Source of the DNA: a virus
Length of the DNA stretch: 64,000 nucleotides
IMG/VR virus record: IMGVR_UViG_3300045921_000267
Span: 5,100 to 69,099 of that record
Reading direction: 5' to 3' (one strand)
Numbering within the stretch: the stretch's first letter is position 1; every line of letters starts with the position of its first letter. This document shows, one piece after another, positions 35,273 through 63,083 of this stretch. A program made the position numbers and the translations under genes. The notes beneath the pieces are model-generated. The model was given only the letters and a program-made list of their open reading frames with translations. It was not told the DNA's origin and did not search any database.

Positions 35273-35287
35273 CGGGTCAGTCCTCCA

Positions 35288-39068: not shown

Positions 39069-39075
39069 CGCGCGT

Positions 39076-43659: not shown

Positions 43660-44523
43660 TCACTTCTTCGCGGCGCCCTTGAAGTGGAAGTCCGCGATTG
43701 CCTCCGCCTGCTTCAGCGAAAGGCCGGGCGCCATCGTCTGAAGCAGAACCGCCGTTTCGAGTCGCGTGATGGGCTCGCCAGCGAGCGCCTTGTCGAGCAC
43801 GCGTTGCTCGATCTCCGAGAGCTTCTTCTTTCGCTTCTTGATGCGTTCGATCGTGGGGCTCGTGCTACCCTGTGCCGCGGCTTCGACGCTGCGGCGCGCC
43901 ATCACACGAGCACCGCCGTCGCCTGTTGCACTTGCCGGAGCGATTGCGACGGGAGCGCTGCCAGCCGAGAGCGACTTCGCGAGCACGTGCAGCGCCGTGT
44001 TCGTATTCACTGGGCATCGGGTGATCGCGACCTCGCGCACGACCGCCTTGCGGATGACCGAGGGGTTCTTCGCGTCGCGCGCAGTGACACTGCCCTCGAC
44101 GCTGAAACCGAGTCGGCGATCGGTCTTCTGGAGCGCGTTCGCCAGCATCCACAGAGCGTCGGCCCGCGGGTGCCCGTCGAGCAGATAGCCCTCGACGTAC
44201 CATCCCTTGCGCATGCCCATCGTGCGGAACTCGGCGCGCGTCGGGTAGCCGACGACTGCATCCGTTGCGGGATCGTGGTTGTCGTTGAACCAACCATCCT
44301 TGAGGAACGGCGCGAAGTCCATCCCGTCTTGCAGGATCTTCTCGGCTTGGCGATCGAGGTCGTCGGTCGAGCAGATCCCACCGATGCGGCGATTCGTCGG
44401 AGCGCTCGTGTCGCTCTTCGTGAAGACCTCGGCATCACACTCGAAGCGCCACGCGTTGCCACGCCCGATGGGCGAGAGCGGCGTTGGGAAGACCTCGATC
44501 TGTGCTGCATCGAGAAACATCAC
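43660..44523 (-). CDS. prohead (capsid maturation) protease
   Basis: IGGICSTDDLDRQAEKI, GWFNDNH, VGYP, RLGFSVEG, VAITRCPVNTNT. Confidence 0.92.
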   Translation of the reverse strand: MMFLDAAQIEVFPTPLSPIGRGNAWRFECDAEVFTKSDTSAPTNRRIGGICSTDDLDRQAEKILQDGMDFAPFLKDGWFNDNHDPATDAVVGYPTRAEFRTMGMRKGWYVEGYLLDGHPRADALWMLANALQKTDRRLGFSVEGSVTARDAKNPSVIRKAVVREVAITRCPVNTNTALHVLAKSLSAGSAPVAIAPASATGDGGARVMARRSVEAAAQGSTSPTIERIKKRKKKLSEIEQRVLDKALAGEPITRLETAVLLQTMAPGLSLKQAEAIADFHFKGAAKK

Positions 44524-44530
44524 GTCTCCA

Positions 44531-44600: not shown

Positions 44601-44640
44601 AGGCCACGCGTGGAGTTATGACTGATACTCCATCCGCTCG

Positions 44641-44886
44641 TCAAGTACGACGCACGACGAGCTTCGGCTGCGACGCATCTTGGGCCTTGCGCAGCACGAT
44701 CGGACCGGGCGCGAGGACGAGCGGGATCAGCACGCCGCGCGAGCATGATGGGCAATTGATCTCAACCTCGCCGCTCTTGTACAGAACGAGGATGCTCGTC
44801 CGCGCTTTCACACGCGTACCATCGTGTGAAGCGCGGAAAAGCTGCGCCGCGCAGTGCGGGCAGCCGAGGTCGGGGTTCTTGTTCAC
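44641..44886 (-). CDS. small zinc-ribbon protein (Com-like)
   Basis: CPHC...EINCPSC. Confidence 0.7.
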   Translation of the reverse strand: MNKNPDLGCPHCAAQLFRASHDGTRVKARTSILVLYKSGEVEINCPSCSRGVLIPLVLAPGPIVLRKAQDASQPKLVVRRT

Positions 44887-45179
44887 GTCGGGACCACCAC
44901 GCCGAGCATGCGCGCTTGCACGACGGCACGCGAAGGCAACGGCACGCCGTGCGAGATGCAGGCGCGGAAGACGGCACGCTTCATCCGGTTGATCTCATCT
45001 TCAGTGTGCACCTTGCCAAGCGTGAGGATCGCGGCTGGGTTCATGATGAGGTCGAGCGCTTCGATCGCAGCGCTCGCGTTCGGGAGGTTCATGAAGTAGT
45101 CGAGCTTCACCCCGTTCTCGATCGAAAGGTCGTCGATCCCGGCACCTCGGAACACATCGGTATAGCGGTTGCCCATCAC
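44883..45179 (-). CDS. hypothetical protein
   Basis: AAGGAG RBS; overlapping start/stop with both neighbours. Confidence 0.65.
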   Translation of the reverse strand: MMGNRYTDVFRGAGIDDLSIENGVKLDYFMNLPNASAAIEALDLIMNPAAILTLGKVHTEDEINRMKRAVFRACISHGVPLPSRAVVQARMLGVVVPT

Positions 45180-48100
45180 GCATCTCCTTTGAACTTCGAG
45201 AACGGGATGAAGAAGCGCGAGAAGCTCTTCTGCGTCATCGCGGCCTTCTTCGCGGCACGCGTAGCGGCAGCCTTCTTCGCCGCCTCCTTCCGCTTCTTCG
45301 CATCCCTCTTCGCCTTCTGCGCCTCGAACTTCACCTTCATAGCGGCCATCTTCGCGGCCAGCTTCTCCCGCTTCGCCTTCCAGCGAGCAAGCATCTCCGC
45401 TTGCTTTTGCTGCCTCTTCGAGAGCGGAACTGCCTCGACGATCTCGCTCTTTGCGGTTGGCACCGCCGGAGGCTGGGGTGCTTCCGCTGCGGGCTTGCGC
45501 TCGCGCGGCGGCGCGCTCGGAAGCTGCGACATCGCGGCGAGCGAATGGCCCGTCGTCGGCAGGAAGTCGTACTGCGTCTCCACGGGCACGCCATCCTGCA
45601 CCGTCTTCATGAAGAACTCGAAGGGCACCTGCTTTGCGCGACCCTGCGTGAGCTGCGAGAGTTCCGCTTTGCTGGGTACCTCAGGCACGACATCGCCAGT
45701 CGGCACGCGGATCTTCTTCTTCTCGCCCGTGTTGGGGTCGGTGATCTGCACCGTCCTGAAGACGGGCATGTTCACCGACGTGGTGAGCCGCTTCACGTTC
45801 ACGAGGTACTTCCTCGACTTCAGGATCTCTCGCTCGAACGGTGAGAGATGCTTTTCGAGGATCTCATTCATGATGTCAGCGTTCGTGATCTCCGCAGGCT
45901 TGATCTGCCGTTCGATGACGCGCACAGCGCCAGTGACCGGATCGACGCGCTCGACGGGTTCGAGCTTGCGCCCGTACTGACGCAGTTGATCGCGCACCTT
46001 CGGACGCATCTCCGCGATCTTCGAGAACGCGCGATGCGCGAAGAATGCCTCGGCTGCGACCACGGGGTTGAAGCCCATGCTCATCGCCTGCGACTTCTCC
46101 GCTTCGTCGAGCGCCTCCCACGCTTCGTGAATGATGCTCATCGCGCTTTCCATGCCGGAGTACTCGGCGAGCCCGTTCTTCGCTTCGATCTCGCGCACGA
46201 TCTCGCCGAGGCGATCGAAGACGGGCTTCGCCTTGTCCGGGATGATGGCGTCGAGCATGCGCGCGGCGCGCGTGATCCGCTGCCACTCTTGCATGGGCGA
46301 GTGCAGCGAGTCGTACATCACGAGTTCACTTGCGTTGCCCCAGTTGAGCCCGACCTGCGCAGCATCCGACGCGATCATCATCTTGCAGTTGTTGAAGACG
46401 TCGATCTGGTGCGTCGAGAGCGGCGCACGATCGGTCACGTACTTCTGGAAGATGGCGTTCAGTTGCTTCGTGAATACATCCTTCTTCTCCAGTGGGGCGG
46501 CGTTGCGGCGCTGCTCCAGTTCCTGGATGAGCTTCCGATCCTTCGCGCTGATCTCGCTCTCGTAGACGTAGCCAAGGCGCGTCTCGTCACCGACGACGCG
46601 CGTGGTGACGCGCATGGGCACCTCGATGCCTCCCGTGCCGTCCGGGCCGGCGAAGAGACGACTGATGCGCTGGCGCTCCGCGCGAGACCAGCCCTCGAAG
46701 AACTCGCCAATCTTCGGCGGCTTGCCAACGCTACCGGTGAGCGTGCGGTGCACGAACATCGACGTCTCCGTGTCCTTCCCCATGTCGTCCTTGACCTTGC
46801 GGAAGATTTCGGAGTTCACATCGCGGTCACCAAGCGTCGCACCCTTGCCGAAGTAGGTGACGAAGTAGCCCATCTTCGGACGACGCTTCTTGTCCTCGTC
46901 GGACGAGTAGCCAGTATCCTCGTGCCCGAGCGCTTCGTTCACGTCCATGTAGCCCATCGATCGGAGCTTCGATTCCATCGTGCGGCACGACGAACCGATC
47001 CGGTTACCGAAGAGGATGAACTGCGCGTCGGGGTTGCCTCCCGTCGCGGTGTTCGTGCGCTCGCGGATGTAGCGTTCGAGTTCGTCGGCCTTCGCGTTGT
47101 TCGCAGTCATCGCCACGTCGAACATGGCGCGCTCGCGACGACGCAGCGGCGAGAGCTGAATGGAGAGCTTCGGATCCTTCGCCTTCTGCTGCTGGAGACC
47201 GGCCTTCTTCTTCTTGTCGCCTTCCGCTTCTTCGACGCTCTCATCGTCTTCTTCGTCGTCACCGCCCTCCGCATCGTCGGTGAACGTGCCGTTGAAGTCC
47301 CAATCGTCCTGGTGGTAGTAGAGACCCGCTGCCTTCTTCGACGGATCGCGGATGAACTTCGTGCCGATCGGTACTTCGATGCGCTCGCCGTTCCACTCCG
47401 CGACGAGAGGCTTCAGGTTGCCATCGGCGTCGAGGTACCCGCGCGCGATGCCGCCCTCAGGACCGTAGTCCGGGTTCGGGATCTTGCCCCACGACGTACC
47501 GTTGACGAAGCCCTTCTTGATGTCAGCGAGCAGCGCCTTGTCGATCTCGGTGCCTGCGAGCTTGTAGTAGTCGATGCCGAGGATCTGCGTAACGTAGAAC
47601 GAGAGCACCTCGAACTCACCCTCCGAGATGCGACCCTTCTCGACGTCCTTCGCGCTCGGCCACTTGCCGCCGAAGCCGTGCGGTGGCTTGCCCGTACATC
47701 GCTTGAAGTCGGGCAACATGAAAACACGCTCGACTTCCTTGATCTCCGTCTTGCCGGTCTTGCCCTTCTTCTCGGCGATCTTCTCGATGTACGTGACGAA
47801 CTCGCGCTGATCGGGGGGCTTGTAGCCCGGCGAGTTTGCGAATGCGCGTGCGACGTTGACCTTGCGACGCATGCCGCCAGAGAACGCAGCGGCTTCATCG
47901 GTGCCGAGCGCGCCCGCCTCTTCGAGCTTGATCATCTCTTGCTCGGTCATGGCGGCCATCGCCAGACGGTAGACTTTCTCCTGCATGCCCGTCATGTGAG
48001 CAGGCTGGTTCTCGTCGAGCAACACCGCAGGCATCGTCTTACCCTTCACGTCTTCCGTGAGAGCGACGTGCATGCGCGTCGCAAGGTACGACGCGAGTTC

Positions 48101-51100
48101 GGAGGCACGCTGCGGATTCAAATCCGTGCGCGGCGGATTCTTCGAGCCGTTCGCCACCATGACGGCACTCGGCGCGAGGTAGCGCTGCGAGAACTGCTTC
48201 TCGGTGCCGAACGGGCTCTTGCCGTTCGTGAGGAGATCGAAGTACCGCGGGATGGTGTTCAGGCGATTCGTGATCGGCGTCCCCGTGAGCAGCAGGAAGA
48301 GGTTCATGCTCGGGTTCCAACGCTCGACTGCGCGCGAGAGTTCGTTCTCGCGCGCGATCGCATGCGCCTCGTCCACGATGATCCCATCGAAGCCGCCATG
48401 CATGCGCAGGTCAGCCTCGTTGTCGCGAAAGTACTCGAACGGGATGATCACGACGTCGTTCTCTTTGTCGGCCTCGGGATCCCATCCGCTGGGGTTCTTC
48501 TTCAACCACTCGGCGCGGGCCTCAGCGACGCGTCGTGCATAGGCTTCCTCGCTCTCGCCATCCTTCTTCGGCGGCCAGTTCTTTGGCGAGAACGCCTGCA
48601 CGGCTCCGGCAAGCGTGTTCGCGCCGATGAGCGTCGCGCCCTTTTCCGTGAAGTCGATCGCGGCGCGCTGCCACTGCACCGCCGTGTTGAGCGGCACGAC
48701 GATCGCAACGCGCTTGCGCGGTGAGCCCTCGATGGGAGTGCCGTCGGGCTTCTTCGCGTTCTTCATCAGACGGATCGCGGCGAGTGCTGCGATCGTCTTG
48801 CCAGTGCCCATGAAGTGGGCCGCCATGCAGCGCCCCTCGGCACGTGCGCAAAGGCGGAGGAACTCCTCCTGATGCGAGCCGAGCTTGAAGCGCGATCCAT
48901 TCGCGAGGGTCGGCTTCAGTCCCTTCAGTAGCCCACCGTTCTCCTCGTCGGTGTTCACGCCGCCATCGGGGCTCGTGATCTGCGACGGCAGCACGACATC
49001 TCGCTGCTTCGCGCGTTCGACGTTGCGCTTCTCACTCCTCATGAGATCGTCGAGCAGTTGCTGCACGTACGAATCCATCACGAAGCCGCCGAACTCCTCA
49101 CGGAGCACGGAGATGTCGCGCAGGTCGATGAAGGGTCCCGTGTCGTCACTGCGCACCGCCGGGAAACGGCGGATCTCCTCAATCGAGATCGATCCATCGC
49201 TTGGGAGCTTCAGCCTCACGGTGCCGCCGCGGAGCTTGCCATCCGCGTCAAAGCGCAGATTGTCGCCGTAGAGCAGCAGGTGGTTCTTCATCGGCATGAC
49301 GTCGCGTCGTTGGCGCGTCACGTCATTGCGATCGACCGCGGTCGTGACCTTCTCCGCATCCTTTTCGCTGATGCGTGCGATCTTCGCGAGTCCGGTACCC
49401 TGCCCTTTCAGCGGTTGCACCTTGAACGTGCTCTTGCCCGGAATCTTCTCATCGTTCTCGTCGAAGGCATCCTGCACCTCGACGATCTCGCCGTAGACGA
49501 TCCGCTCACTCGTCGGGTCGCGGTACTTGATGAGAGCGCCCTGTCCGAACTCGATCGTGCGCGGCGGGATCTCGCGCACACCCTCGACGTTGATCTTGTT
49601 CTTCGAGTCGAGCAGCGAATCCACTCGCGCTTGCTCAACGCCAAGGATGCGATTCCAGTATTCGCCTGCGAGCAGCGGGTTGCCGCCGCCGTCGAACGTG
49701 ATCTTGATGTGCGCGTAGCTCGGGTTCTTGTCGGTGCCCGTCTGCACGGTGACCCACGTACTCGCCTGCGCCTTCGCAGCATCGCGCATGAGCCTCACGA
49801 GGTCACCCTCGTTGCGGATGCGCTCACCAAGCGGGTTGATGAGCTTGGCGAGCAACGGATCGGTGATCTGCCCTGCCTCGATCTTGCCGTTCTTGTGCAG
49901 AAGCATCTCGGCGGTCGTGCCAAGATCACGTGCGAGCTTCGCTGGCTCCAGTCGATCCCATCGAAGCTCGGGCCATGTACCCGTCGCGACCTTGCGGAGC
50001 TTGCCGCTCTTCGTGCGCTTCCACGCGAAGGGCTTCTCCTCAGGCGTCAGGCGCCCGTCAGGCTGGATGCGGTACCTGATCCACCGCTGCTCCGTCACAT
50101 CGACGCCAGATGACTCGCGACGCGTCACGGAGAGCGGCAACACGAACCTGCCGCCGGGCACGAAGGGCTCGCTCTCGTTGACGGTGATCTTCGTTTTCGT
50201 CCCGTCTGGATTCGGCATCTCGTAGACCGTCGCAGCACGCACGGGCTCGACCTTGCCGGTGATGGGGTCGTGCGCAGTGACGACGACGGGGCGCTTCAGC
50301 TTCTTGTCGTAGACGCGCTTCAGCAGCGGTTGCTTCTCCGCCTTGCGCAGTCCTTCGAACTTGAAGGTCGGCGTGAGAGCCTCGAACTCTTCGCGGCTCA
50401 TCTCCAGCGGAACCCACTCATGCCGGTCCTCGCGAAGCTCGGCGCTCGTCTTGCCCTTCTCGCGCAACTTGCGGACACGCTCGCGCTCTTTCTCTTGCGA
50501 TGCACGCGACTCACCGAGCTTCGCGAAGATGATACGACCAAGGTGCGACTGAAGTTCACCAGGCTCCCAGCCCACCACGTCGTCGCCGATCTTCTCGTTG
50601 AAGTCCTCGTCGTCTTGCCGGAGGTAGAGCAGCGCCTGATGCGGCGTCAGCGCGTTCCCGTTTTCATCGTATATCTCCTTGTAGACCTGCTGCGACTGGA
50701 AGCGCGCAGCGGTCGGCGAGTCGTAGACGGGAAGCTCGGTCTCGGGATCGATCGTCGGAGGCACCGGCTCCCATCCCGAAAGCTCTGCATCCTTGTCGGG
50801 CGGGCCGAGTCGGAAGAACACGGCGCGCCCCTTGTAGTGCACCGTGTAGAACTGATCCTTCTCGCTCCGGTAGGCGCCGACGTAGCTCGGTTGACCTTCG
50901 ATCTCGCGCTGCGCCGCGATGCGGCGCGCTGCTTTGCTCGCAGGCTTCAAGTCCCACCAGCGAAGCTCTTCATCCGGTACCTTCAGCATCTTGTCGAGCG
51001 AAGGGCCGGGGATGAGGCCGTGCTTGCGGAAGAACTCGTAGCGCGCGGGGCATTGACGAGCCATCTGCTTCGGTCGCGAGATCATGCACGCGACCGACTC

Positions 51101-51976
51101 CGCCCAGTCCTCCTTCTCGTTCGTGAACGCGTAGTCGGAGATGCGCTGCGGATCACGCAGCGAGAGTTCCTTCCACTCCTCCCATATCGCGCTCTTGCTG
51201 CTGATCAACGCGTCGTGCATCTGGTGCGCGAGTTCGTGCCACACGATCTCTTCCGCGATCGTGAAGCGCGATCCGAAGCGCGGACGCCCGACGGGCTCAG
51301 CCGTGAAGCCTGGCGGGCTACCGTGAGTGCCAGGAGTCCCATCGGCGAGTAGATGGACCTCGCCGGTCTGCCCATTCGACCATCCCGCGGGAGGCACCGT
51401 GCCGTGCTCGGCCCAAAGCGCCACTTCATCTGGATCGTTGCGCGTAGTGATGATGATCTTCTTCAGTTGATCGTCACCGATCAGCGCACGCATCGGCTCA
51501 GGCAGCATCTGGAACGCGCGGTAGACACGCGCGAGCGGGAAGCGCTCGATCTCCTCGTCCGGCTGCGCCTTCTCCTTCGCCGCGAACGAGGCGTGGAAGC
51601 GTCGCAAGAACTCGGGGTGCAGATGCACCTTCACGCCCTCGATTCCAAGAGCGCGCACGAGCGAGTCTTCCGTGACCTCGCTCGGCTTCACGCGATTCTT
51701 CGCGAGGTTCTTGAAGAGCTTGTGGATGTTCGAGGTCAGTTCGTGCTCGTGATGAGTTTCGATCGCCTCGGTACCCTCGACCTGCTTCTTCCCAGCCTCG
51801 CGCACCTTGTCGTCGGCGTAGTAGTAGCGGTAGACGATGCGCCCGTTACGGAAGCCGACGAACTCGCGCTTGATGTACTTGTGACCCGCCGACGGTCCTC
51901 GCGAGAAGCCGGTCGCAGTGGCCTTGACGAGTTCTTCGCTCACGCCGAGTCGGCGGATCGGGACCACGAACTTCAT
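45176..51976 (-). CDS. large polyvalent protein: zincin metallopeptidase plus SWI2/SNF2 ATPase (2266 aa)
   Basis: True start MKFVVP after GGAGGAG; WHELAH..ISDYAFTNEKEDWAES; AHFMGTGKT, IIVDEAH, LLTGTP, SDAAQVGLN, QRITRAAR. Confidence 0.88.
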   Translation of the reverse strand: MKFVVPIRRLGVSEELVKATATGFSRGPSAGHKYIKREFVGFRNGRIVYRYYYADDKVREAGKKQVEGTEAIETHHEHELTSNIHKLFKNLAKNRVKPSEVTEDSLVRALGIEGVKVHLHPEFLRRFHASFAAKEKAQPDEEIERFPLARVYRAFQMLPEPMRALIGDDQLKKIIITTRNDPDEVALWAEHGTVPPAGWSNGQTGEVHLLADGTPGTHGSPPGFTAEPVGRPRFGSRFTIAEEIVWHELAHQMHDALISSKSAIWEEWKELSLRDPQRISDYAFTNEKEDWAESVACMISRPKQMARQCPARYEFFRKHGLIPGPSLDKMLKVPDEELRWWDLKPASKAARRIAAQREIEGQPSYVGAYRSEKDQFYTVHYKGRAVFFRLGPPDKDAELSGWEPVPPTIDPETELPVYDSPTAARFQSQQVYKEIYDENGNALTPHQALLYLRQDDEDFNEKIGDDVVGWEPGELQSHLGRIIFAKLGESRASQEKERERVRKLREKGKTSAELREDRHEWVPLEMSREEFEALTPTFKFEGLRKAEKQPLLKRVYDKKLKRPVVVTAHDPITGKVEPVRAATVYEMPNPDGTKTKITVNESEPFVPGGRFVLPLSVTRRESSGVDVTEQRWIRYRIQPDGRLTPEEKPFAWKRTKSGKLRKVATGTWPELRWDRLEPAKLARDLGTTAEMLLHKNGKIEAGQITDPLLAKLINPLGERIRNEGDLVRLMRDAAKAQASTWVTVQTGTDKNPSYAHIKITFDGGGNPLLAGEYWNRILGVEQARVDSLLDSKNKINVEGVREIPPRTIEFGQGALIKYRDPTSERIVYGEIVEVQDAFDENDEKIPGKSTFKVQPLKGQGTGLAKIARISEKDAEKVTTAVDRNDVTRQRRDVMPMKNHLLLYGDNLRFDADGKLRGGTVRLKLPSDGSISIEEIRRFPAVRSDDTGPFIDLRDISVLREEFGGFVMDSYVQQLLDDLMRSEKRNVERAKQRDVVLPSQITSPDGGVNTDEENGGLLKGLKPTLANGSRFKLGSHQEEFLRLCARAEGRCMAAHFMGTGKTIAALAAIRLMKNAKKPDGTPIEGSPRKRVAIVVPLNTAVQWQRAAIDFTEKGATLIGANTLAGAVQAFSPKNWPPKKDGESEEAYARRVAEARAEWLKKNPSGWDPEADKENDVVIIPFEYFRDNEADLRMHGGFDGIIVDEAHAIARENELSRAVERWNPSMNLFLLLTGTPITNRLNTIPRYFDLLTNGKSPFGTEKQFSQRYLAPSAVMVANGSKNPPRTDLNPQRASELASYLATRMHVALTEDVKGKTMPAVLLDENQPAHMTGMQEKVYRLAMAAMTEQEMIKLEEAGALGTDEAAAFSGGMRRKVNVARAFANSPGYKPPDQREFVTYIEKIAEKKGKTGKTEIKEVERVFMLPDFKRCTGKPPHGFGGKWPSAKDVEKGRISEGEFEVLSFYVTQILGIDYYKLAGTEIDKALLADIKKGFVNGTSWGKIPNPDYGPEGGIARGYLDADGNLKPLVAEWNGERIEVPIGTKFIRDPSKKAAGLYYHQDDWDFNGTFTDDAEGGDDEEDDESVEEAEGDKKKKAGLQQQKAKDPKLSIQLSPLRRRERAMFDVAMTANNAKADELERYIRERTNTATGGNPDAQFILFGNRIGSSCRTMESKLRSMGYMDVNEALGHEDTGYSSDEDKKRRPKMGYFVTYFGKGATLGDRDVNSEIFRKVKDDMGKDTETSMFVHRTLTGSVGKPPKIGEFFEGWSRAERQRISRLFAGPDGTGGIEVPMRVTTRVVGDETRLGYVYESEISAKDRKLIQELEQRRNAAPLEKKDVFTKQLNAIFQKYVTDRAPLSTHQIDVFNNCKMMIASDAAQVGLNWGNASELVMYDSLHSPMQEWQRITRAARMLDAIIPDKAKPVFDRLGEIVREIEAKNGLAEYSGMESAMSIIHEAWEALDEAEKSQAMSMGFNPVVAAEAFFAHRAFSKIAEMRPKVRDQLRQYGRKLEPVERVDPVTGAVRVIERQIKPAEITNADIMNEILEKHLSPFEREILKSRKYLVNVKRLTTSVNMPVFRTVQITDPNTGEKKKIRVPTGDVVPEVPSKAELSQLTQGRAKQVPFEFFMKTVQDGVPVETQYDFLPTTGHSLAAMSQLPSAPPRERKPAAEAPQPPAVPTAKSEIVEAVPLSKRQQKQAEMLARWKAKREKLAAKMAAMKVKFEAQKAKRDAKKRKEAAKKAAATRAAKKAAMTQKSFSRFFIPFSKFKGDA

Positions 51977-51978
51977 TG

Positions 51979-52308
51979 TCACTCCTCCGAAGCGAGCAGA
52001 CAGAAGGGGTCGGGCAGCGAATGCACCGCAGCGACGAAGTGCTCCTCGGTGCCTGGCTCGTGCTCGACGAAGCCCTCCCATGTCTTGCCGTCGCGCGTGC
52101 CACCGGTACGCGCAGTGATCTTGCGGCCGAAGTGAGCAAAGAGATGCGAGCGCTCCACGTCGGTGAGCGGCTGCTTCACGTTCGAGAGTCCGATGCCGCC
52201 GTCCTCACGGCGGCGGATGTTGAACGCGAACTTTGCATCATCGCCGTCGATCCGGCCAACGTGATAGACGCGCTTCGCAGCCTTCTTCAGGTATTCACTC
52301 ATCTTCAT
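51979..52308 (-). CDS. hypothetical protein
   Basis: ATGA-coupled to the upstream gene; 109 aa. Confidence 0.65.
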   Translation of the reverse strand: MKMSEYLKKAAKRVYHVGRIDGDDAKFAFNIRRREDGGIGLSNVKQPLTDVERSHLFAHFGRKITARTGGTRDGKTWEGFVEHEPGTEEHFVAAVHSLPDPFCLLASEE

Positions 52309-55172
52309 TCTCCGAGACCCGAGAGAAGCTCCACCGTTCGACGTGCGATGGTCGGCGCGTCCGCGATCTGCTCTTCAGGAGCGACCAGCAACCGCATCGT
52401 ACGCGGGTAGTTGATGGCTTCTCGAAGCATGCCGCTCGTGAGCGTAGCATCGGCGCGCCGCTTTTCCGAAGCCCGCGACTTTTCCATCTCGCGGTCTTCG
52501 GCGCTACGTAGATCGCGCAGCGTGCGCACACGTACGTTGCGCTGCGCACCGGTCGCGAGATCGGTCATCGTCATCACCATCGAGCCGTATTCGAACCCGC
52601 GAGGCGGCGGCACGTCTACGGTGATCGTCTGCGTCATGAGCCTTCGCATCTCCGCAGTCTCAGGTGCGATGCGCGTCGCAATCTTCATGCGGATCTCGTC
52701 CTCGCTCATGCGATCGACGCGCCGATACGCTTCCTCCGCAGCGCGCAGTGCATGCTCGTGCTGAAGCGCATTCGGCCCGCTCGCCTGCGAAGCGCGATCA
52801 CGAGATCGCTCCACGAGACCGGCGAGACGTGCCTTCTCCTCGGCGCGGTACTCCGCGATTTGCTTCGGCGTGACGTCGGCAGCCCTCTTACGGATGATCT
52901 CGTGCCACGTCGGACCGGAAACGACGGGTACGGGCGGCGTGAGCTTCTCCGCGGCGCGCGTCATGAGCGTCTTCGCGTCGCGGTCCTGCACCTTCTCGCG
53001 TGCGACGTTGATCGCGCGCTCGATCATCTCGCTCACGATCTCTTCAGCGCGACGTTGTTCGAGCTTCTTCCCGTTCGCGTAGATGGGCACCTGCTTCGCG
53101 ATCTGCGAGGTGCTCATCTCGTCATCACCGTACAGTCCGAGGCGCAGCGCGAGCATCTCCCCCGCGTCGCCCTTGTACGTGATCTTCTTCCTCCCCTCGC
53201 TCGTGAACTCGAACTCCGAGAGGTCGCCAAGCGTGCGTTGCACTGCTTGGCGAATCGCGACGCGCTCCTCGGGTGAATAGCCGAGCCCCATCCCGAGGCC
53301 GGGTAGCGCGAACTTGTCCTCGTCGAAGAGGTCACGAGCGCTCGCCTGCCCCTTCAGGAACGAGTCGTAGAGATGCGCCCATTCGAGCTTGCCGGGATGC
53401 GTCACCGTATCGCGCTCGACGCTTGCTTCGGTCGCGCCGACCTTCTCGCCCGTGCCTCGCTGCACAACGCCCTGCGAGCCCTCACGCACTGCGACGATCG
53501 TGTAGCCGTGCACCGGCACCGGCTCGTTCGCCTGAGCACCGGTGAGGTGGGAGTGCAGATGCCTCTTCAGAAGCTTGAAGTACGGCATCACTTGCTCGGG
53601 CGTCGGGTCATCGACACCGAGCGCCTTCGCAGCTTGTGCGCGCGCAGCGACGTAGCGCGCGATGTTGCGCTGATGCCTCATGGGTAACGAGACGCCGCCA
53701 AGCCGTTCGCGTGCAGCAGCGATGCGCACGTGGTCGCGCACAAACTGCTGCGCATGCGGGGTGAACGCGTTCTTTGCATCGTAGCGCTCGATCGCGTCAA
53801 GCAACCCTTCGATGCCGGCTCGCTGAAGCTCGACGAGCGTGGTGTTCACGGCGCGTCCACCCCGCACACCCTTTTCGTACTGCATCTGGAGCGCGAACTG
53901 CTTCGCGATCTTCTTCGCCGTGCTCGCGATGAGCGGCTCGAACTCCTTCACGAGCAAGTTCTTGCCGTGGTCAGACACCGCGATCGCTTCCATCTTCGTT
54001 TTGCGCTTCGAGCCGTCCTCGTTGACCTCAAAGCGCTCGATGACGCGCATGGGATAGACGCCGTTCTCGATCGCGTAGAGACCCGGCTGCGTCTCCTTGT
54101 TCGCCGTCGAGCCCCCGAACACGGGAGCCGTCTTCCCGGCCGCTGGGCGCCCGCTGGAGGGCTTCTGGCGCGTTCCTCCCGTCGGAGTCCAGGCCGGCTT
54201 CGTCTCGGCCTCTGGCGCCTCCACGCGAGCCCTGCGCAGGGGGTCGTGATCGACGCTGAAGATTCGATTGTGCTGCATCATGATCTTCGCGCCGTCGTCC
54301 ACGGCGCGAAGGATCGCGAAGCCAGGGTTCGTAGGGTCTTCGGGAACCTCGATGGTGTAGAGCTTCGCGAAGCGTCCACCGACTTTCACCGGAGCGTGGG
54401 AGTGCGGATCGACACCACCTGCGATCCACGGCTTCATCTCACCGCCGCTCACGCGCCAGTGCCAGTGCGTCGGGTCCTTGTCGAAGTCCCCAGCACGGAA
54501 CTGCTCCTCACTGAAGCGCGTCGCCGTCTTCCACTCGTGCGCGACGTGCGATGCCTGCGGCTTCTCCTCTCCTGGATACCAGTACTCCCATCCCGATCCC
54601 TTGCGCCGGCGGAAGCCGTGCTTGTGTCCACCTGGGATGGGCATCCAGCCCGCGCCTTCTGGATGCGCGGCCTTCACGAGGTCGGCGAGCGTAAGGATGG
54701 AGCGCACGAGTTCGCCACGGTTTTCCTTCTTGAAGACCTTCGCCTTGAAGGCGTCGATGTGCATCTTCTTCATACCACCGAAGAAGCGCGCGTCGTCGTA
54801 GTGCGCGAGATACGCGGTTTTCGCCTTCTTCGCGCTCGTGAAGCCGAGCATGACCTTCTGCTCGTCCACCTCCGAGAAGTCAGGCTTCTTCATCTGCGTC
54901 ACGACGTAGACGCTCTCGCTCTCCGGGTGAGGCCCGATGTAGCAGTCCACGTGATCACCGTCGGTGCCTTCGGTGCCGCGGATGTAGCCGTAGTCGTAGA
55001 GCATGCGCGTCGAGCCGTTCTCCTTGGAGTGTGGGTCGTACCAGTGACGCACGGTACCTCGCGCGTTCTCGATGCTGATCTGCATCCCGTGCACTTCGGT
55101 GCGACCGTGGAGCTTGCGTGCCTTGCCGTAAAAGTCGGCGATGACGCTCGTCTTCGGGATCACGTACTTCAT
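52305..55172 (-). CDS. fusion of inorganic pyrophosphatase-like (InPase) domain and sigma-70-like factor
   Basis: ISIENARG..YGYIRGTEGTDGDHVDCYIG..DEQKVMLGF; region 2 ELQRAGIEGLLDAIERYD..FTPHA..VSLP; region 3 DPTPEQV; region 4 LALRLGL..MSTSQIA. Confidence 0.85.
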   Translation of the reverse strand: MKYVIPKTSVIADFYGKARKLHGRTEVHGMQISIENARGTVRHWYDPHSKENGSTRMLYDYGYIRGTEGTDGDHVDCYIGPHPESESVYVVTQMKKPDFSEVDEQKVMLGFTSAKKAKTAYLAHYDDARFFGGMKKMHIDAFKAKVFKKENRGELVRSILTLADLVKAAHPEGAGWMPIPGGHKHGFRRRKGSGWEYWYPGEEKPQASHVAHEWKTATRFSEEQFRAGDFDKDPTHWHWRVSGGEMKPWIAGGVDPHSHAPVKVGGRFAKLYTIEVPEDPTNPGFAILRAVDDGAKIMMQHNRIFSVDHDPLRRARVEAPEAETKPAWTPTGGTRQKPSSGRPAAGKTAPVFGGSTANKETQPGLYAIENGVYPMRVIERFEVNEDGSKRKTKMEAIAVSDHGKNLLVKEFEPLIASTAKKIAKQFALQMQYEKGVRGGRAVNTTLVELQRAGIEGLLDAIERYDAKNAFTPHAQQFVRDHVRIAAARERLGGVSLPMRHQRNIARYVAARAQAAKALGVDDPTPEQVMPYFKLLKRHLHSHLTGAQANEPVPVHGYTIVAVREGSQGVVQRGTGEKVGATEASVERDTVTHPGKLEWAHLYDSFLKGQASARDLFDEDKFALPGLGMGLGYSPEERVAIRQAVQRTLGDLSEFEFTSEGRKKITYKGDAGEMLALRLGLYGDDEMSTSQIAKQVPIYANGKKLEQRRAEEIVSEMIERAINVAREKVQDRDAKTLMTRAAEKLTPPVPVVSGPTWHEIIRKRAADVTPKQIAEYRAEEKARLAGLVERSRDRASQASGPNALQHEHALRAAEEAYRRVDRMSEDEIRMKIATRIAPETAEMRRLMTQTITVDVPPPRGFEYGSMVMTMTDLATGAQRNVRVRTLRDLRSAEDREMEKSRASEKRRADATLTSGMLREAINYPRTMRLLVAPEEQIADAPTIARRTVELLSGLGE

Positions 55173-56986
55173 CGGTCGAGCCTCACGTTCTGCGGCATGA
55201 AGCGCGTTGCTGCGGGGTCCGGGCGGCGCCGCTGCGACACCGGACGGATGAGCGAGCGGTAGTAGCGGTGCACGAACGTGAACTGTCGCGGGAAGTCACG
55301 CATGAGCGTCATGCGATCGTAGAGATACATCCTCGTTACCTCCGCCGCGCACTCGATGGGGAGCTTGCTCGCGTACTCCGTGACGAAGCCCTCCTCTTTC
55401 GCGATCGCGAAGAGCTTCTCGTGCCATGCCTTCACCTTCTCGATGCTGCCAAGACGGTGCATCAGAAACACGTTCGGCACGTGCCCCATCTCGTGTTCGA
55501 GCACCGCGCGCAGCTTGTCGAGTGGTAGGTTCTGCATGATGCGGATCTCGTTGCCGGTCCAGTACGCGAGATCGTGATCGTCGAGGTGCGAGTTCTGCGT
55601 TGGATGATCGGTCGTGATCAGCGTGATGCCCGTGCGCTTCGTGAAGAGCGTCTTCGGCGTGCGCGCGATCACGTCGTCGATGATCGCAAGTCGTTCAGGG
55701 TCGCCGACGCGAACGACGACGCCATGCTCGGGCACCGAGTCGCCATAGGAGAGCGCCTTGCGCAGATCGTGTTCGAGCATCCACGCCTTGCGCGTGCGCT
55801 TCGGCACGAGATTGCCCGTCGTGTCGAAGCCCCATCCTTCCGGCACGTGGACGAGCGCGCATTCACACCACGGATGCGTCGGTCCGACGACGGCGCGCCA
55901 GTCACGAGCTTTGCGACCGACGTTCGTGCCATTCGCTTGCAAGTCCGCGAGCCGGAACACGCGAGGGCGTGAGCCCTGCCCTGCGGTGAGATGCAGACGC
56001 ACGCAGTGATCGCACGCCGCAGGCGTGGGCACCTTCGCAACGAGGATGTCGCGTGGGTTGCCCTCGCGCTTCATGAGTCCTTGCACTTGTCCTTCCTGCA
56101 TGGCGCGCATCTTCTCAGTTGCGGCGATGCGTCCGAAGTCACGCGACCAGTCCTTCGTCTTGTGCCCGAGGTCACTCTTCATCTTGCGCCACGTTTCACG
56201 GCGCTCGATGTTCTCATCGAGCGTCTCTCGGATCGCACGCTGCATGCGCTGCTGGAGAGCGCGGTCAGCCTCGATGGCAGTCGTCTCGAAGTCCTGCGCG
56301 ACACGGTTGCCGAGACCGCGCACGTGCGTCGCCGCGCTGCGGCGCGCCCACTCGCGGGCGAACTCCTCGTCACTCGTCATCGGAAGCGGTCGTGTGGCGA
56401 GTCTGTTCTTGATCCCCTTCAGCGTCATCGCCGGGATCTTCACGACACCATGCGCGACTTGCGCGTTCACCTCAGCGAGCAGTTGCCCGTACGCGTACGC
56501 GTCGTCGATGATCCCGAGCGCGCTCTTCGGAAGGATGCCCATCGCTACGATGCGCTTCACCTCCTCGGGCGCAACGCTCGACGCGCCAAAGAAGCCGATC
56601 GCGATCGCGGTGTGATGATCAAGGATGATCTGCACAAGCTCGCGTAGTTGCGCCGTCGTGAAGAGCGGACGCGGTCCTCGCGCCTTCATGAAGTCGGCGT
56701 GCTTCGCGATGTAGCGATCGATCGCACTGAGCATGCGATCGATCTGCGCGTCGTACTCTCGCATCGCAAGATCGTACATCTCCGCGAGCGGCTTGTGCGC
56801 CTGGAACGGATTCTCGTTCGCGCGTGGCTCCGCCTTCACGAGCCATCGCCCACCGACGACGGCTTGCGCGATCAGGAAGGGGTCAGCGTGTGCAGGTGCT
56901 TCAATGCGCACGCACGCATGGTGCTCATGATGCGCATGCCCACACCCAGGCCCAGTTCCGGGCTCGTGCTCGTCGCTCGTGCTCAC
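55169..56986 (-). CDS. MuF-like (gpF/SPP1 gp7) head protein with C-terminal zincin domain
   Basis: DWSRDFGRIAATE, ACDHC, GPTHPWCEC; then VLEHEMGH..VTEYA..ECAAE. Confidence 0.85.
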   Translation of the reverse strand: MSTSDEHEPGTGPGCGHAHHEHHACVRIEAPAHADPFLIAQAVVGGRWLVKAEPRANENPFQAHKPLAEMYDLAMREYDAQIDRMLSAIDRYIAKHADFMKARGPRPLFTTAQLRELVQIILDHHTAIAIGFFGASSVAPEEVKRIVAMGILPKSALGIIDDAYAYGQLLAEVNAQVAHGVVKIPAMTLKGIKNRLATRPLPMTSDEEFAREWARRSAATHVRGLGNRVAQDFETTAIEADRALQQRMQRAIRETLDENIERRETWRKMKSDLGHKTKDWSRDFGRIAATEKMRAMQEGQVQGLMKREGNPRDILVAKVPTPAACDHCVRLHLTAGQGSRPRVFRLADLQANGTNVGRKARDWRAVVGPTHPWCECALVHVPEGWGFDTTGNLVPKRTRKAWMLEHDLRKALSYGDSVPEHGVVVRVGDPERLAIIDDVIARTPKTLFTKRTGITLITTDHPTQNSHLDDHDLAYWTGNEIRIMQNLPLDKLRAVLEHEMGHVPNVFLMHRLGSIEKVKAWHEKLFAIAKEEGFVTEYASKLPIECAAEVTRMYLYDRMTLMRDFPRQFTFVHRYYRSLIRPVSQRRRPDPAATRFMPQNVRLDR

Positions 56987-56989
56987 CGA

Positions 56990-57403
56990 TCACGTCGTGA
57001 GATCGCCGACGATGCAGACCTTCAATCGCCGCACGTCGGTCGCACTCGGGTTGGAGACGAAGAGCGAGGTCATGACCTCGGTCATGAGCGCAAACGCCTT
57101 CAGGTTGGGTGCCTGCGTGTTCAACGGCGGCGCCATGCGCGAGAGCATGCGGGACTGCTGACCGATGCCGTTCACGCGGTAAGTGATCTCGCCATCGGCC
57201 TCGATGTAAGCGAGGCGCGCTTGCGTCACATCGCCGAACGAGACCGGCACGTCGGAGGCGTTTGGATCAAGCGCGATCGTCTGCGTCACGACATGCTCGC
57301 ACGTGTCGAGCAGCTCCGTCAGCGAGCGCTCGAACGCCGTGTCATCGAGGCGGTTGTCGAACCCGATCGCGACTTGGAAATCCACCTTTGTCCGCAAGCT
57401 CAT
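56990..57403 (-). CDS. hypothetical virion-associated protein
   Basis: ATGA-coupled to portal; beta-rich. Confidence 0.65.
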   Translation of the reverse strand: MSLRTKVDFQVAIGFDNRLDDTAFERSLTELLDTCEHVVTQTIALDPNASDVPVSFGDVTQARLAYIEADGEITYRVNGIGQQSRMLSRMAPPLNTQAPNLKAFALMTEVMTSLFVSNPSATDVRRLKVCIVGDLTT

Positions 57404-59130
57404 CGCGAATCTCCCTCTTCGAGATCCATCTCGATCACGAGCCTACCACGCTCCGTCTTGCGCCTCACGCTCTTCAGCAAGCGATCGACGCCACGCATGC
57501 TCCGTTCGAGTTCAGCCTCTTCGGGAAGCTCGTCCACTTCACCCGCCTGAAGCTCTTCTTCATCGGGCGGAGGCTCCGGTGCTCCGTCGTCGTCCTCTTC
57601 GCCACCGGGCGACGGAGCGCCTCCCGCAGCAGCTTGTGACTGCTGCTCTTGCATCATCTTCTCTTGCTGCTTCGCTTGCGCGAACTGGAGCCACGTCGGG
57701 TTGTTGATGCACTGCCCAAGGCCATCAGGCAACGGCGGCAGGTCGTCGTCTGCGCGCACCTCGTCAACCATGCGGTACGCGCCGACTTCCTTGATGCGTG
57801 CCTCACGCTCCTTCTCTTCATCGCCAGCGTCGAGCCCGACGAACGAGAACTCGAACTCAGGCTCGATATCCCACACGATGTGCCGATTCATGTTGTCGGC
57901 GATGTGGTCCATGAGCGGGCGCAGTCCCTTGTCCTTCGACTCAGTGAGCTTCGCTTCCTGCTTGCCCTCGTTGAGCGAGTGCGACTGCCCCGTGTTGCCG
58001 AACTGGAAGTTGATCTCGACGGGATCGGCTCCGTAGACCGCGCACGTAAGCTTCGTGAGCCAGTCCATCCACGCGCTGAACTCCATCTCGCGGTTCGTCG
58101 AGTGCAGCGACTGCCACTGAATGTCTTCCGAGTTCAGGATGGGCGTGCGCCATGCGTTCGTGACACCAGTGACCTGCGAGTACCACATACGTCGAAACGC
58201 ACGGAGTTGGCGATCTGGAATGGCGCCCTTGATGTTCAAGATGCCTTTGATCGCCGAGCCTTGTGAGAAGAAGCGCTGGTTGTACTCGAAGCCGAAGAGC
58301 CACGCGGTCACAAGGTGCATCAACTGCTCGACGGGCGAATAGCCGAAGCCGTTCACGCGGAGATCGCTGCGTGGGTTCATGATGCACCACGCGAGATCAT
58401 CCGACGAGAACTCAGCGATCACCGAGTCTTCGTAGACCTGCACGTAGGCGACGCGCGAGTGTTTCTCCTCGGGGTCAAGATGCTCTGCATCCGACACCGC
58501 AGGTCGGATCGTCTCGCTCGGAAGCGCGATGAAGCGCGAGACCTTCCCGCGCCGATCGCGAATCTTTTCGAAGCACCACTGGTCGTAAGTGAGGATGTCA
58601 CGCACGCCCTTCTTCACGAAGAGCGTGAACGAGTCTCGGTCGGCGGGCTTTTCGTCAGGCAGCAAGATGCCCGTCGTTTCGATCATCCGCTCGATCTCAC
58701 TCGCCCGCTTCTGCTCGGCGGGTGTCATGCTCTTCCACCGATCGCGGCGATCACGCTTGATGATGCGGTAGCCGCGATCGTACTTGCCCTGCTGCGGACG
58801 CGAGAACTGCGCAACCTGGTTGCAACGCAGCGTGATCAACGCAGCGATCACCGTGTTGCGCGCAGTCATCTGGCGGAGCGTCTCGTAGGTCAGCGACGAC
58901 GGACGCTCCCGCCAGCCTCCCCAGTCGATGATGCTGTAGGGGTCGTGGAAGAGAGCACGCGGCTTCTCGTCAGTAGCCTCGGGCAGTCCTCCGTCATCCG
59001 CAGCGAGCCCAGCGTCACGAAGGGCTTTCGCCATGTCGGCGTTGGAGACGTCGCCTCCGTCGCCGATCATGTCACCGATCCGCCGGAACGCACCGCCGAG
59101 CCCGGCGCGGATGTCGTCGAAGATGCCCAT
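57400..59130 (-). CDS. portal protein
   Basis: RDILTYD..FEKIRDR, NPRSD..GFGYSPVE, YNQRFFSQG..KGIL, GVTNAWRTP, EMEF..DPVEINF, SKDKGLRPL. Confidence 0.95.
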   Translation of the reverse strand: MGIFDDIRAGLGGAFRRIGDMIGDGGDVSNADMAKALRDAGLAADDGGLPEATDEKPRALFHDPYSIIDWGGWRERPSSLTYETLRQMTARNTVIAALITLRCNQVAQFSRPQQGKYDRGYRIIKRDRRDRWKSMTPAEQKRASEIERMIETTGILLPDEKPADRDSFTLFVKKGVRDILTYDQWCFEKIRDRRGKVSRFIALPSETIRPAVSDAEHLDPEEKHSRVAYVQVYEDSVIAEFSSDDLAWCIMNPRSDLRVNGFGYSPVEQLMHLVTAWLFGFEYNQRFFSQGSAIKGILNIKGAIPDRQLRAFRRMWYSQVTGVTNAWRTPILNSEDIQWQSLHSTNREMEFSAWMDWLTKLTCAVYGADPVEINFQFGNTGQSHSLNEGKQEAKLTESKDKGLRPLMDHIADNMNRHIVWDIEPEFEFSFVGLDAGDEEKEREARIKEVGAYRMVDEVRADDDLPPLPDGLGQCINNPTWLQFAQAKQQEKMMQEQQSQAAAGGAPSPGGEEDDDGAPEPPPDEEELQAGEVDELPEEAELERSMRGVDRLLKSVRRKTERGRLVIEMDLEEGDSR

Positions 59131-59155
59131 GCCAGAGCCTACCGCAGCCTGCGCT

Positions 59156-60151
59156 TCAGCGCTTCGGATTGATGCCGAGGTCGAGCCCGTAGACGTCCTG
59201 CATGAGCGCGAAGCGAGCGTGGTGCACGTTCGCCAACATCTGCACGGGGTTCACACCGTCGTCTTCGAGCTTCACGTTCTCGCTTCCGGCAAGCACGCTC
59301 ATGGTGCGCTCGACCGACTTGCGCATCTCCTCTTCGCTCGGGAACGCGCCACTGTCGGCCGAGAGCGACTTGCCGATGCCCGCCGCCGTCTGCTGCTCGG
59401 AGAACATGTAACCCTCCAAGAAGTCGCCGTTGACCTCGGAGCCGTTGAATGCAGGCTTCACGAGACCCATCGCGCGCAGACGTGACGCAACGAAGTCCTT
59501 CGTCGCGTTCAGCTTCACGCACGCACGCAAGATGTTCTCGTTCTTGCCGCAGTAGATCACGAGTTCGTTCATGACCCACTGCGCCCACCAGTCAGCCTCG
59601 TCACCGCCGATGCCGCCGTTCGCACCGTCGGGCTGCGAGATGCCCATGATCGCCGCGTTCTCGTCGTGGCATCGCTCGCGCTTCTCGTGCTCGTACGCTT
59701 CTTCGATGAACGCGTCGAGGTACGCGGCGAGGTAGTCGTCGGGGATCTTGCTCATCCCCTTGTAGCCAGGCTCGAACGCGTACAGGCCCTTCGCCATCAG
59801 GTCTTCCTGCGCGATCACCATCTTGATCTGCTCACGCAGTTCGGGGGTGCTTTCCATCATGTCGATCATCTCCTCATGCTGCGCGTGGTGCGCCATGCTT
59901 TTCTGCGTGTGTCCGCGGGCTTTCTTCTTCCCCCGCATGCGCTCACGCGCGGCCTCGCGCCCGCTCACGTGGGCGGCCTCGCCGTGATCACGGTCGTACT
60001 CCTCCTTCGAGTAGTAGTACCGCCACGGCTTCTTCGGATTCCACGTAGGAACGCGACGGTAGTACTTCCCGCCGCGGGCGATGCCCTTTGCGAAGTCATC
60101 GATCGTGTCGAGGGCAAGAGTCGGAATGTCGTCGAAGTCCATGCGCACCAT
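59156..60151 (-). CDS. hypothetical head-associated protein
   Basis: FAKG site, then GGKYYRRVP..WRYYY motif; several further K-S/K-G sites. Confidence 0.7.
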   Translation of the reverse strand: MVRMDFDDIPTLALDTIDDFAKGIARGGKYYRRVPTWNPKKPWRYYYSKEEYDRDHGEAAHVSGREAARERMRGKKKARGHTQKSMAHHAQHEEMIDMMESTPELREQIKMVIAQEDLMAKGLYAFEPGYKGMSKIPDDYLAAYLDAFIEEAYEHEKRERCHDENAAIMGISQPDGANGGIGGDEADWWAQWVMNELVIYCGKNENILRACVKLNATKDFVASRLRAMGLVKPAFNGSEVNGDFLEGYMFSEQQTAAGIGKSLSADSGAFPSEEEMRKSVERTMSVLAGSENVKLEDDGVNPVQMLANVHHARFALMQDVYGLDLGINPKR

Positions 60152-60166
60152 CCTACCACGTGATCG

Positions 60167-60586
60167 TCACTTGCCCTTGGGCACGACGAGCTTCGGCATC
60201 GGGCCGACCTTCACCGGCTGCGGCGGCTTGTACGAAGCGATGACGCCGCGACGCTTGCTCGATGCCAACGAGCGCCGCGGCGGGTTCTGCGGGAAGTCGT
60301 CGGTCTCATACCGGAGGATGGGCGTGCCCTCGGGGTCGGCCGTGCCGTGGAAGCCATACTTGCCTCGGTTCGCGATGCCCATCGCGCGACGTTGCGTCTC
60401 GCGTGCAGCGGCCTCGTCCTGGCGTCGCGGATCGTCGTCGGGCTGATAGTAGATGCTCGCGTAGTCCGGCATCGCGTCGTACGGTGCCGGTGTTGCCCCG
60501 GTGTTCGAGACAAGCGTGCCCTTGCTCTTGCCGTAGATGCGGCGAAGCCCTCGCTCGATCTCAGCATGTTCGCGAAGCTTCTTCAT
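60167..60586 (-). CDS. hypothetical protein
   Basis: Tightly packed and co-oriented; ends PKLVVPKGK. Confidence 0.6.
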   Translation of the reverse strand: MKKLREHAEIERGLRRIYGKSKGTLVSNTGATPAPYDAMPDYASIYYQPDDDPRRQDEAAARETQRRAMGIANRGKYGFHGTADPEGTPILRYETDDFPQNPPRRSLASSKRRGVIASYKPPQPVKVGPMPKLVVPKGK

Positions 60587-60589
60587 CTC

Positions 60590-62485: not shown

Positions 62486-62510
62486 TCGCTCACCTATCGC
62501 GCGTCTTCGC

Positions 62511-62591: not shown

Positions 62592-62598
62592 ACTCAGA

Positions 62599-63027: not shown

Positions 63028-63083
63028 CTTGGTCCGTTCCTTTCGTTGCGCAGGTGGACCCTCACCTGCGTAGTGCGCCCATC

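Follow-up and report, generated by a model that had tools for sequence, protein, structure and literature searches.

What is a sigma factor doing among the head genes of a phage? The question is raised by an open reading frame (ORF) at positions 52305-55172 of a 64,000-nucleotide stretch of viral DNA, here called the window, which corresponds to bases 5100-69099 of a single linear IMG/VR virus record of 69,099 bp (IMGVR_UViG_3300045921_000267; CheckV completeness 69%). Nearly all genes of the record lie on the minus strand, and so do this ORF, its parts and the head genes described below; coordinates are those of the window unless marked otherwise. The ORF is a single open frame of 955 amino acids with an ATG start, and its product combines an InPase domain, an L-x-K/A site (the slash marks the candidate point of cleavage), a hairpin, beta domains, a sigma70-family module and a C-terminal helical region. 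The original prediction, made without database searches, was that this protein is a sigma-70 factor fused to a pyrophosphatase domain, packaged in the virion and injected to redirect host RNA polymerase to the early promoters of the phage.

The sigma70-family module, at about residues 355-745, is complete but highly divergent; we regard homology as established in its sigma2 and sigma3 parts, and structure gives good support for sigma4. Whether the protein is also a prohead-processed, virion-delivered sigma factor that binds the core RNA polymerase of the host we regard as evenly poised, and we infer packaging, injection and promoter recognition from the evidence set out below.

A divergent sigma70-family module

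A search with residues 390-745 against 1.84 billion representative sequences yields 67 clusters at E <=1e-3, with no ordinary sigma factors among them. The representatives of 61 clusters are 600-2455 amino acids long; the other six are 267-524 amino acids long, and at least four of these look like fragments, their match running to a protein end. The family alignment has 38 members (37 homologues and the 955-residue protein itself), down to about 30% identity. When the profile of the 37 aligned homologues is compared with PDB, the InPase part matches the C-terminus of the solved portal 9b41_L (1.3e-26), followed by RpoS (1.9e-4) and then by FliA and SigA. RpoS 120-207 is covered by profile positions 440-527, and in region 4.2 there is a further collinear stretch below threshold. 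With hhalign, the whole family alignment matches E. coli FliA at 86% (E 5.1e-6) and E. coli RpoD at 28% (E 6.2e-4); restricted to the columns of residues 395-545, it reaches 94% for FliA (E 1.3e-7, 122 columns) and 69% for RpoD (E 4.3e-5), against at most 0.2% (E 0.25-0.59) for six controls (FliZ, Mug, and shuffled and reversed sigma factors).

Sigma2 (regions 2.1-2.4) takes up residues 400-492 (53697..53975), supported by profile, hhalign and structure alike. The start of sigma3 (regions 3.0-3.1), at residues 497-545 (53538..53684), is marked by the hidden Markov model and hhalign stretch: the sigma2 alignment continues to RpoS 207, FliA 135-150 and sigma70 485-487, and the model has sigma3 helices at 498-518 and 525-531. 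Ahead of sigma2, a region 1.2-like helix and beta-hairpin (residues 343-397; 53982..54146) is joined to it in structure searches. Behind sigma3 comes a linker or insertion (residues 546-630; 53283..53537), of low confidence and partly disordered at about residues 560-585, with conserved VPxxxY and PGKxEWA motifs, and then sigma4 (regions 4.1-4.2; residues 631-745; 52938..53282), assigned by structure and interrupted by two small beta-hairpins. Sigma regions 2, 3 and 4 had been predicted, insertions included; profile search, hhalign and two AlphaFold models bear this out.

The AlphaFold2 model of the module has a mean predicted local distance difference test (pLDDT) score of 87.8, and the full-length AlphaFold model one of 77.7. 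Searched with Foldseek against PDB, the module finds only sigma factors or holoenzymes among the matches listed (ranks 1-50), with probabilities of 0.93-1.00 over some 335-360 aligned columns; the TM-scores are low (about 0.2), as expected for a compact model laid on an extended sigma factor. Re-alignment of the module with VIA puts sigma28 (9wsf_A) first (Z 10.4, root-mean-square deviation [rmsd] 1.8 A, 77 aligned), and 49 of the 50 matches listed are sigma factors or holoenzymes; the one exception is the epitope scaffold 3les_A, whose alignment covers the chain range that is also covered by sigmaA domain 2 (3ugo_A).

The most independent structure test is an unfiltered VIA scan of the full-length model against 48,161 chains. 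The 50 matches listed comprise 37 that are sigma factors by title, eight pyrophosphatases and five others. Sigma2 matches have Z 9-9.7, with 1sig_A at Z 8.8 (rmsd 1.7), and 5h6x_B (RpoS regions 1.2 and 2) aligns to model residues 355-489 with 88 of its 96 residues (Z 9.0, rmsd 2.6). Seven isolated or extracytoplasmic function (ECF) sigma4 domains among the listed matches align to residues 631-735, such as ECF sigmaL in an initiation complex (6dv9_F; Z 6.3, 72 aligned, rmsd 2.3 A), sigmaE region 4 on -35 DNA (2h27_D; Z 5.7, 69/69 aligned, rmsd 3.0 A), SigA region 4 (6ono_B; Z 5.5, 68/69, 2.5 A), sigF (8jzt_A; Z 5.4, 57/57, 1.8 A), sigmaA domain 4 (4g6d_A; Z 5.3, 62/62, 2.4 A) and SigR region 4 (5fgm_A; Z 5.3, 64/65, 2.6 A).

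Bacterial group 3 and 4 sigma70-family members (FliA/sigma28, RpoS, ECF) thus supply the best matches, namely FliA (hhalign and 9wsf_A), RpoS (by profile) and region 4 of sigmaE (2h27_D). The viral module resembles them in having sigma2, sigma3 and sigma4 in the same order and in the G-x-x-G-L-x-x-A pattern of region 2.2. It differs in being embedded in a 955-residue protein of a head block, in its insertions and in the replacement of the aromatics for -10 melting.

Head-block position, putative processing motif and fusion partners

The gene was predicted to lie just past the portal and MuF genes, and it does. The portal gene (57400-59130; PF04860 9e-21, phrog_12 1.7e-51) and the gene for a MuF-like head-morphogenesis protein of 605 amino acids (55169-56986; weak match to phrog_2468, 0.0019, with a zincin-type HEMGH motif at the C-terminal end) are found just upstream, and the MuF-like stop codon overlaps the ATG of the 955-residue ORF as ATGA. 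Directly downstream is an SNF2-helicase giant protein of 2301 amino acids (45176..52081) with SNF2-related, ResIII and Helicase_C domains, probably an injected giant of the DarB type; its start codon is uncertain, an internal MKFVVP resembling the MKYVIP start of the 955-residue ORF. Further downstream are genes for a head maturation protease (43660..44523; phrog_1028 2.7e-46), the scaffold (42618-43646) and the major capsid protein (41158-42567; 31-34% identical to SPO1-like capsid proteins). On the other side of the portal gene come a 331-residue ORF (59156-60151) and a 667-residue ORF (60590-62593), neither with a family match, and the large terminase (63084 to the window end). In six related IMG/VR loci, the module is preceded by the MuF-like gene and followed by the SNF2 giant and the protease wherever these flanks are present (locus L003 begins within the gene, locus L004 breaks off within it, and L002 is almost the same as L003).

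The candidate cleavage site, DLVK/A in the original prediction, is present at residues 164-168; its LVKA (residues 165-168; 54669..54680) lies in a linker that appears disordered (pLDDT below 50 for residues 158-168) and would be a site for the prohead protease, with K168/A169 as the candidate cut. A six-frame translation of the 69-kb genome contains just six instances of LVK[ASG], all in minus-strand genes of the head block: the 667-residue ORF, the MuF-like ORF, the 2301-residue ORF, the 955-residue ORF and, twice, the scaffold. The wider pattern L[VIL]K[ASG] is found nine times in ten head-block ORFs (6,837 amino acids), where shuffled sequences average 1.31 and none of 1000 shuffles reaches nine, and not once in 34 other ORFs (14,045 amino acids; shuffle mean 1.45). 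Orthologues keep the positions of these sites, and 36 of the 38 aligned family members have [LIFY]-x-K-[ASG] at residues 165-168. The MuF-like protein carries LVK/A at residues 49-52 (WLVK/AE, 48-53), with WL[VLI]KAE or VLLKAE in four relatives; the 667-residue ORF has LVK/S 48 residues ahead of its C-terminus; and in the 2301-residue protein an LVK/A near the N-terminus precedes a hairpin-like motif, GHKYIKR...YRYYY. LRK/A at residues 28-31 of the capsid protein is consistent with these, the looser motif being a common one. The N-terminal 17 residues of the 955-residue protein (55122..55172), which end in YGK/A, are possibly a short propeptide, a weak suggestion from the alignment of N-termini; homologues mostly have L-x-K-A there, and residues 1-19 have pLDDT below 50.

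Behind the LVKA site follows a Gly/Arg/aromatic beta-hairpin at about residues 173-200 (54576..54656), with strands at 187-191 and 194-198 in the model and the sequence GAGWMPIPGGHKHGFRRRKGSGWEYWYPG. That the hairpin is shared, as had been noticed earlier, holds: the 667-residue ORF carries the same motif, and inspection by eye shows looser versions behind K-[AG] in the 2301- and 331-residue ORFs. Its occupancy in the family alignment is at least 90%, and it is more constant than the InPase domain. The combination of L-x-K/[A/S/G] and hairpin in four head-block proteins would be a signal for processing and for cargo, and the head maturation protease is the presumed enzyme.

The InPase domain itself, of a family I pyrophosphatase-like OB (oligonucleotide/oligosaccharide-binding) fold, occupies residues 22-145 (54738..55109) and is confirmed as an N-terminal domain by PF18823, whose profile is matched over positions 11-133 of 135 with E 1.7e-37 and 128.7 bits (cut-off 26.8). 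The acidic signature DGDHVD stands at residues 71-76, and E35 and D103/E104 are kept across the family. The eight pyrophosphatases among the listed matches of the unfiltered VIA scan (Z 5.3-6.3) fall on residues 5-159 of the predicted model. All ten PHROG matches of the protein are confined to this part, in families named minor head protein, virion structural protein and DarB-like antirestriction. With the whole protein as tblastn query, 470 of 50,697 phage records match, none of them covering 80% of the query, and among the matches listed (30 of the 470) only query residues 10-179 are covered; judged by these sequence matches, InPase occurs in phages apart from the sigma module. Between hairpin and sigma module lies a beta-rich middle domain (residues 220-315; 54228..54515; pLDDT about 90), and behind the module a C-terminal region, conserved across the family (residues 746-955; 52308..52937), with long helices, a low-confidence stretch at 849-908 and a small helical end domain. 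ESM Atlas structure searches with residues 745-955 and 169-395 gave only TM <=0.32 and were uninformative, neither part being folded alone.

Fusion partners vary among the homologues: InPase in 24 of 37, S-AdoMet lyase in seven, DUF3293 in six, and Zeta_toxin, ART-PolyVal, LPD1 and Topoisom_I in one each; the homologue in the related locus L001 also has a GNAT domain. The main text of Iyer 2017 (PMC5512222) treats such multidomain polyvalent architectures as virion-packaged effectors, and their hallmark, unrelated effector domains in one polypeptide encoded beside portal and MuF genes, is what is found here. A precedent is SPN3US, whose prohead protease is reported to cut ejection proteins (PMC10052503, PMC7411985). 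It had also been proposed that hydrolysis of pyrophosphate by the InPase domain favours nucleotide polymerisation. This part of the proposal fares poorly: a functional link between InPase and sigma is doubtful because the predicted cut at LVK/A separates the two parts and because the domains also occur apart, InPase being present in only 24 of the 37 homologues.

We consider it likely, judging from gene order and sequence motifs, that the 955-residue protein is head cargo, because position, ATGA coupling, synteny, polyvalent partners, the fusion of InPase to a solved portal in 9b41_L and the head-block-specific L-x-K/[ASG] motif all point that way. The same facts bear on another reading, that of a late sigma factor which is not packaged at all, its gene merely standing in the head operon and its product acting in the cell that makes it, for example on very late genes. 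To our knowledge, every phage sigma factor described so far works in the cell in which it is made, and the structural neighbours in BFVD are ordinary phage sigma factors (the top named rows include those of Vibrio phage VAP7 and Aeromonas phage phiA8-29), which counts in favor of this reading. A sigma factor made together with the head proteins, however, would come too late to activate late genes. The family is always found in long multidomain proteins (61 of 67 clusters at 600 amino acids or more), its partners are domains of polyvalent proteins, its synteny is conserved, and it has the L-x-K/[ASG] motif and hairpin in common with the scaffold and other head-block proteins; on this evidence we hold an unpackaged late sigma factor to be quite unlikely.

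A single-protein scan of genome contigs found no relative, and so gives no prophage and no clue to the host. Other features of the window include a CobT/vWA-like protein of 756 amino acids (178-2448, minus strand), with a proline run and a tandem repeat of 48-nucleotide period (1428-1847) that encodes EDGSEGDEGSSKSARG units, and near its gene a MoxR-type AAA ATPase (3296-4255, minus strand). Two 79-nucleotide direct repeats, 99% identical (6942-7020 and 7321-7399), each beginning ACTGAC and ending GTCAGT, bracket a small minus-strand ORF (6940-7431).

Predicted polymerase binding and possible promoter recognition

Conservation in the family is highest in region 2.2, where E455, G456 and L458 are invariant or kept in at least 90% of members; Y464 and F470 come next and are also invariant or nearly so. 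Modelling with a part of core RNA polymerase, of the kind called for at the outset, predicts a complex: the sigma2 part with E. coli beta' 1-350 scores 0.77 (the best of three controls, 0.00), a level reached by 58 of 80 solved complexes and two of 110 mismatched pairs, with the reservation that beta' of E. coli is a foreign stand-in and that a pass may reflect likeness to solved sigma-beta' complexes. No fewer than 82% of contacts are shared between runs, the partner has a pLDDT of 72 or more, and the predicted interface pairs beta' 260-298 and 310-323 with residues 444-462 of the 955-residue protein. On this model region 2.2 is predicted to dock on the beta' clamp helices, and polymerase binding is probable.

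This bears on a further reading, in which the protein is a sigma-derived internal head or DNA-binding protein that organises the packaged DNA or serves in ejection, with no role at the polymerase. Such a role would suit the DNA-binding folds of sigma2 and sigma4, the basic hairpin, the long C-terminal helices and the great divergence of the module. The strongest conservation, however, is at the polymerase-binding helix and not at DNA-contact positions, and it is this helix that the complex model sets on the beta' clamp helices while the controls stay at 0.00; we therefore consider a purely internal head protein very unlikely.

A number of results weigh against a delivered sigma factor that reads phage promoters, beginning with those that touch the sigma assignment itself. 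A tblastn search with the sigma module against the 50,697 phage records found no match at E <=1, and so no cultured relative. With Pfam, none of three cut pieces of the protein matched a family at E <=10, and FliA_WhiG, the best NCBIfam match, has 16.4 bits (cut-off 189.6); the protein stays below the curated thresholds of Pfam Sigma70_r2, r3 and r4 and of the NCBIfam sigma models, and genome scans with PF04542 and PF04545 gave matches elsewhere and none in the 955-residue ORF. The hhalign match of the region 4 columns to RpoD falls at the correct place (sigma70 556-584) at 1.4% and E 0.036 (controls 0.2-0.69), which is not significant; region 4 by sequence alone was dropped as evidence, and the support for sigma4 therefore comes from structure. 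In the model, one hairpin insertion lies near the helix-turn-helix of sigma4. VIA Z values of 9-10 are middling for a helical domain by the tool's own note, and the weight rests on the agreement of sequence, domain order and complete domain coverage rather than on Z values.

Others of these results, besides the foreign partner in the complex model, concern promoters. In the hhalign register H, Q and F stand in place of sigma70 Y430, W433 and W434, which we take to be the region 2.3 aromatics that serve -10 melting, and the family consensus keeps an aromatic at the W434 position only, so that classical -10 recognition is unlikely. No cognate promoter emerged as a repeated intergenic motif from a direct-repeat search or from shared k-mers in 14 intergenic gaps; these searches yielded GC-rich words only, about a third of the genome being absent from the record. 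In the region 7660-7868, which the original prediction had offered as an early promoter region, no recognisable repeated promoter was found, and a terminator-like hairpin at 7774-7794 lies inside it. This hairpin, with its T run, is on the minus strand immediately behind the primase gene, and position 7657 is the start of a small ORF.

Results of this kind would fit an injected decoy, a packaged protein that occupies the core enzyme or displaces the host sigma factor and so shuts off host transcription, with no initiation of its own. Its core-binding region 2.2 would be the part to conserve and to dock on beta', and neither the melting aromatics nor a cognate promoter motif would be needed. 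A decoy would also need less than the family has kept: sigma2, sigma3 and sigma4 are all retained in the 38 aligned members, and the family also conserves D480 and R483, which align with the -12-contacting residues of sigma70, and R708 of the sigma4 recognition helix, roles assigned by analogy. Moreover, sigma70-type promoter-like sites number zero in three 20-kb scans (1-20000, 20001-40000 and 44001-64000), where shuffled sequences average 2.6, 2.1 and 2.3 and about seven would be expected in total, which argues that another specificity factor is needed. Taken with these facts, a decoy strikes us as unlikely.

A second, weak sigma-like ORF of 721 amino acids lies at 3301-5466 of the genome (minus strand), that is, at window positions 1-367 and upstream. 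Its Sigma70_r2 match reaches 21.6 bits in the genome profile search and 17.6 bits by hmmscan of the part present in the related locus L007, both short of the cut-off of 24. The N-terminus is ECF-like; after it come a long low-complexity stretch rich in Asp and Glu, and tails rich in Lys and Ala. This second ORF may encode a sigma factor for later stages.

Proposed course of infection and relation to known systems

A delivered sigma factor would work as follows. The gene would be expressed along with the head genes, with a start coupled to that of its MuF-like neighbour, and the 955-residue protein would enter the prohead. There the head maturation protease would cut at L-x-K/[A/S/G] sites, freeing an InPase polypeptide (about residues 18-168) and a product of about 87 kDa that runs from the hairpin to the C-terminus (about residues 169-955). 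Both products would remain inside the capsid until infection, when they would exit together with the DNA. Region 2.2 would then bind the beta' clamp helices of the host core RNA polymerase and sigma4 the flap, and the host enzyme would read phage promoters ahead of any phage protein synthesis; the weak second sigma-like gene could take over at later stages. The packaged-sigma interpretation is supported in part: by the sigma2/3/4 module, the docking model of region 2.2 and a context of the cargo type, but weakly at the InPase-sigma link. That a lineage of uncultured myoviruses of about 100 kb, with contigs of 92-115 kb, injects a packaged sigma factor, and so reprograms the host core RNA polymerase to immediate-early promoters before expression of its own genes, is a tentative proposal, to which we give somewhat less than even weight.

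Phage sigma factors such as T4 gp55, SPO1 gp28 and phiEco32 gp36 are stand-alone early or middle products made after infection. The 955-residue protein is like them a sigma-family phage protein that would reprogram the host core enzyme (7d7d_F, from the T4 late-transcription complex, matches at Z 7.3); unlike them it is fused to effector domains, encoded between MuF-like and protease genes and marked by the processing motifs of the head block. The internal proteins of T4 and Alt have a capsid-targeting sequence that is cut by gp21, after which they are injected, and Alt acts on host RNA polymerase. Here too, cargo and scaffold have a short protease consensus in common; it differs in being L-x-K/[A/S/G] followed by a hairpin, and the effector is sigma-like rather than an ADP-ribosyltransferase.

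Virion RNA polymerases (N4 vRNAP, phiKZ/SPN3US, AR9) are, according to the main text of Iyer 2017 (PMC5512222), packed in the capsid and injected, and support early transcription without new protein. The likeness is that a component of transcription would be packed and injected; the difference proposed is that only the specificity subunit would be carried and the host would supply the catalytic core. The earlier idea of an alternative to a virion RNA polymerase fits, but a polymerase may yet be encoded: a PF00940 scan for a phage RNA polymerase gave no match in the genome, but its control was silent too (0/14 genomes) and the record is 69% complete. Like polyvalent proteins (P1 DarB-type SNF2 giants, InPase fusions), the protein is a multidomain effector encoded beside portal and MuF genes, and an SNF2 giant adjoins it; unlike them it has a sigma module, which is not among the domains named in the main text of Iyer 2017 (PMC5512222), where 'sigma' has 0 occurrences. 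No report of a virion-packaged or injected sigma factor was found in the literature searched, supplements (including the Iyer 2017 domain tables) lying outside it.

The sigma-module family comprises at least 67 sequence clusters and is recognised by no curated model, and is therefore invisible to routine annotation; with it, a sigma module is added to the set of domains that polyvalent proteins carry. For other uncultured phages, capsid cargo might be predicted with the help of the L-x-K/[A/S/G] motif, here confined to the head block, and of the shared hairpin. Three ways in which phages begin early transcription are known: host-sigma promoters, injection of a whole RNA polymerase (N4, phiKZ, crAss-like) and injection of a protein that modifies the host enzyme (T4 Alt). 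If a sigma factor is indeed injected, this would be a fourth and cheaper route, in which the specificity subunit travels alone. Because the host would supply the catalytic core, early transcription in such phages should be sensitive to rifampicin yet independent of protein synthesis, and their early promoters would be unlike the host consensus.

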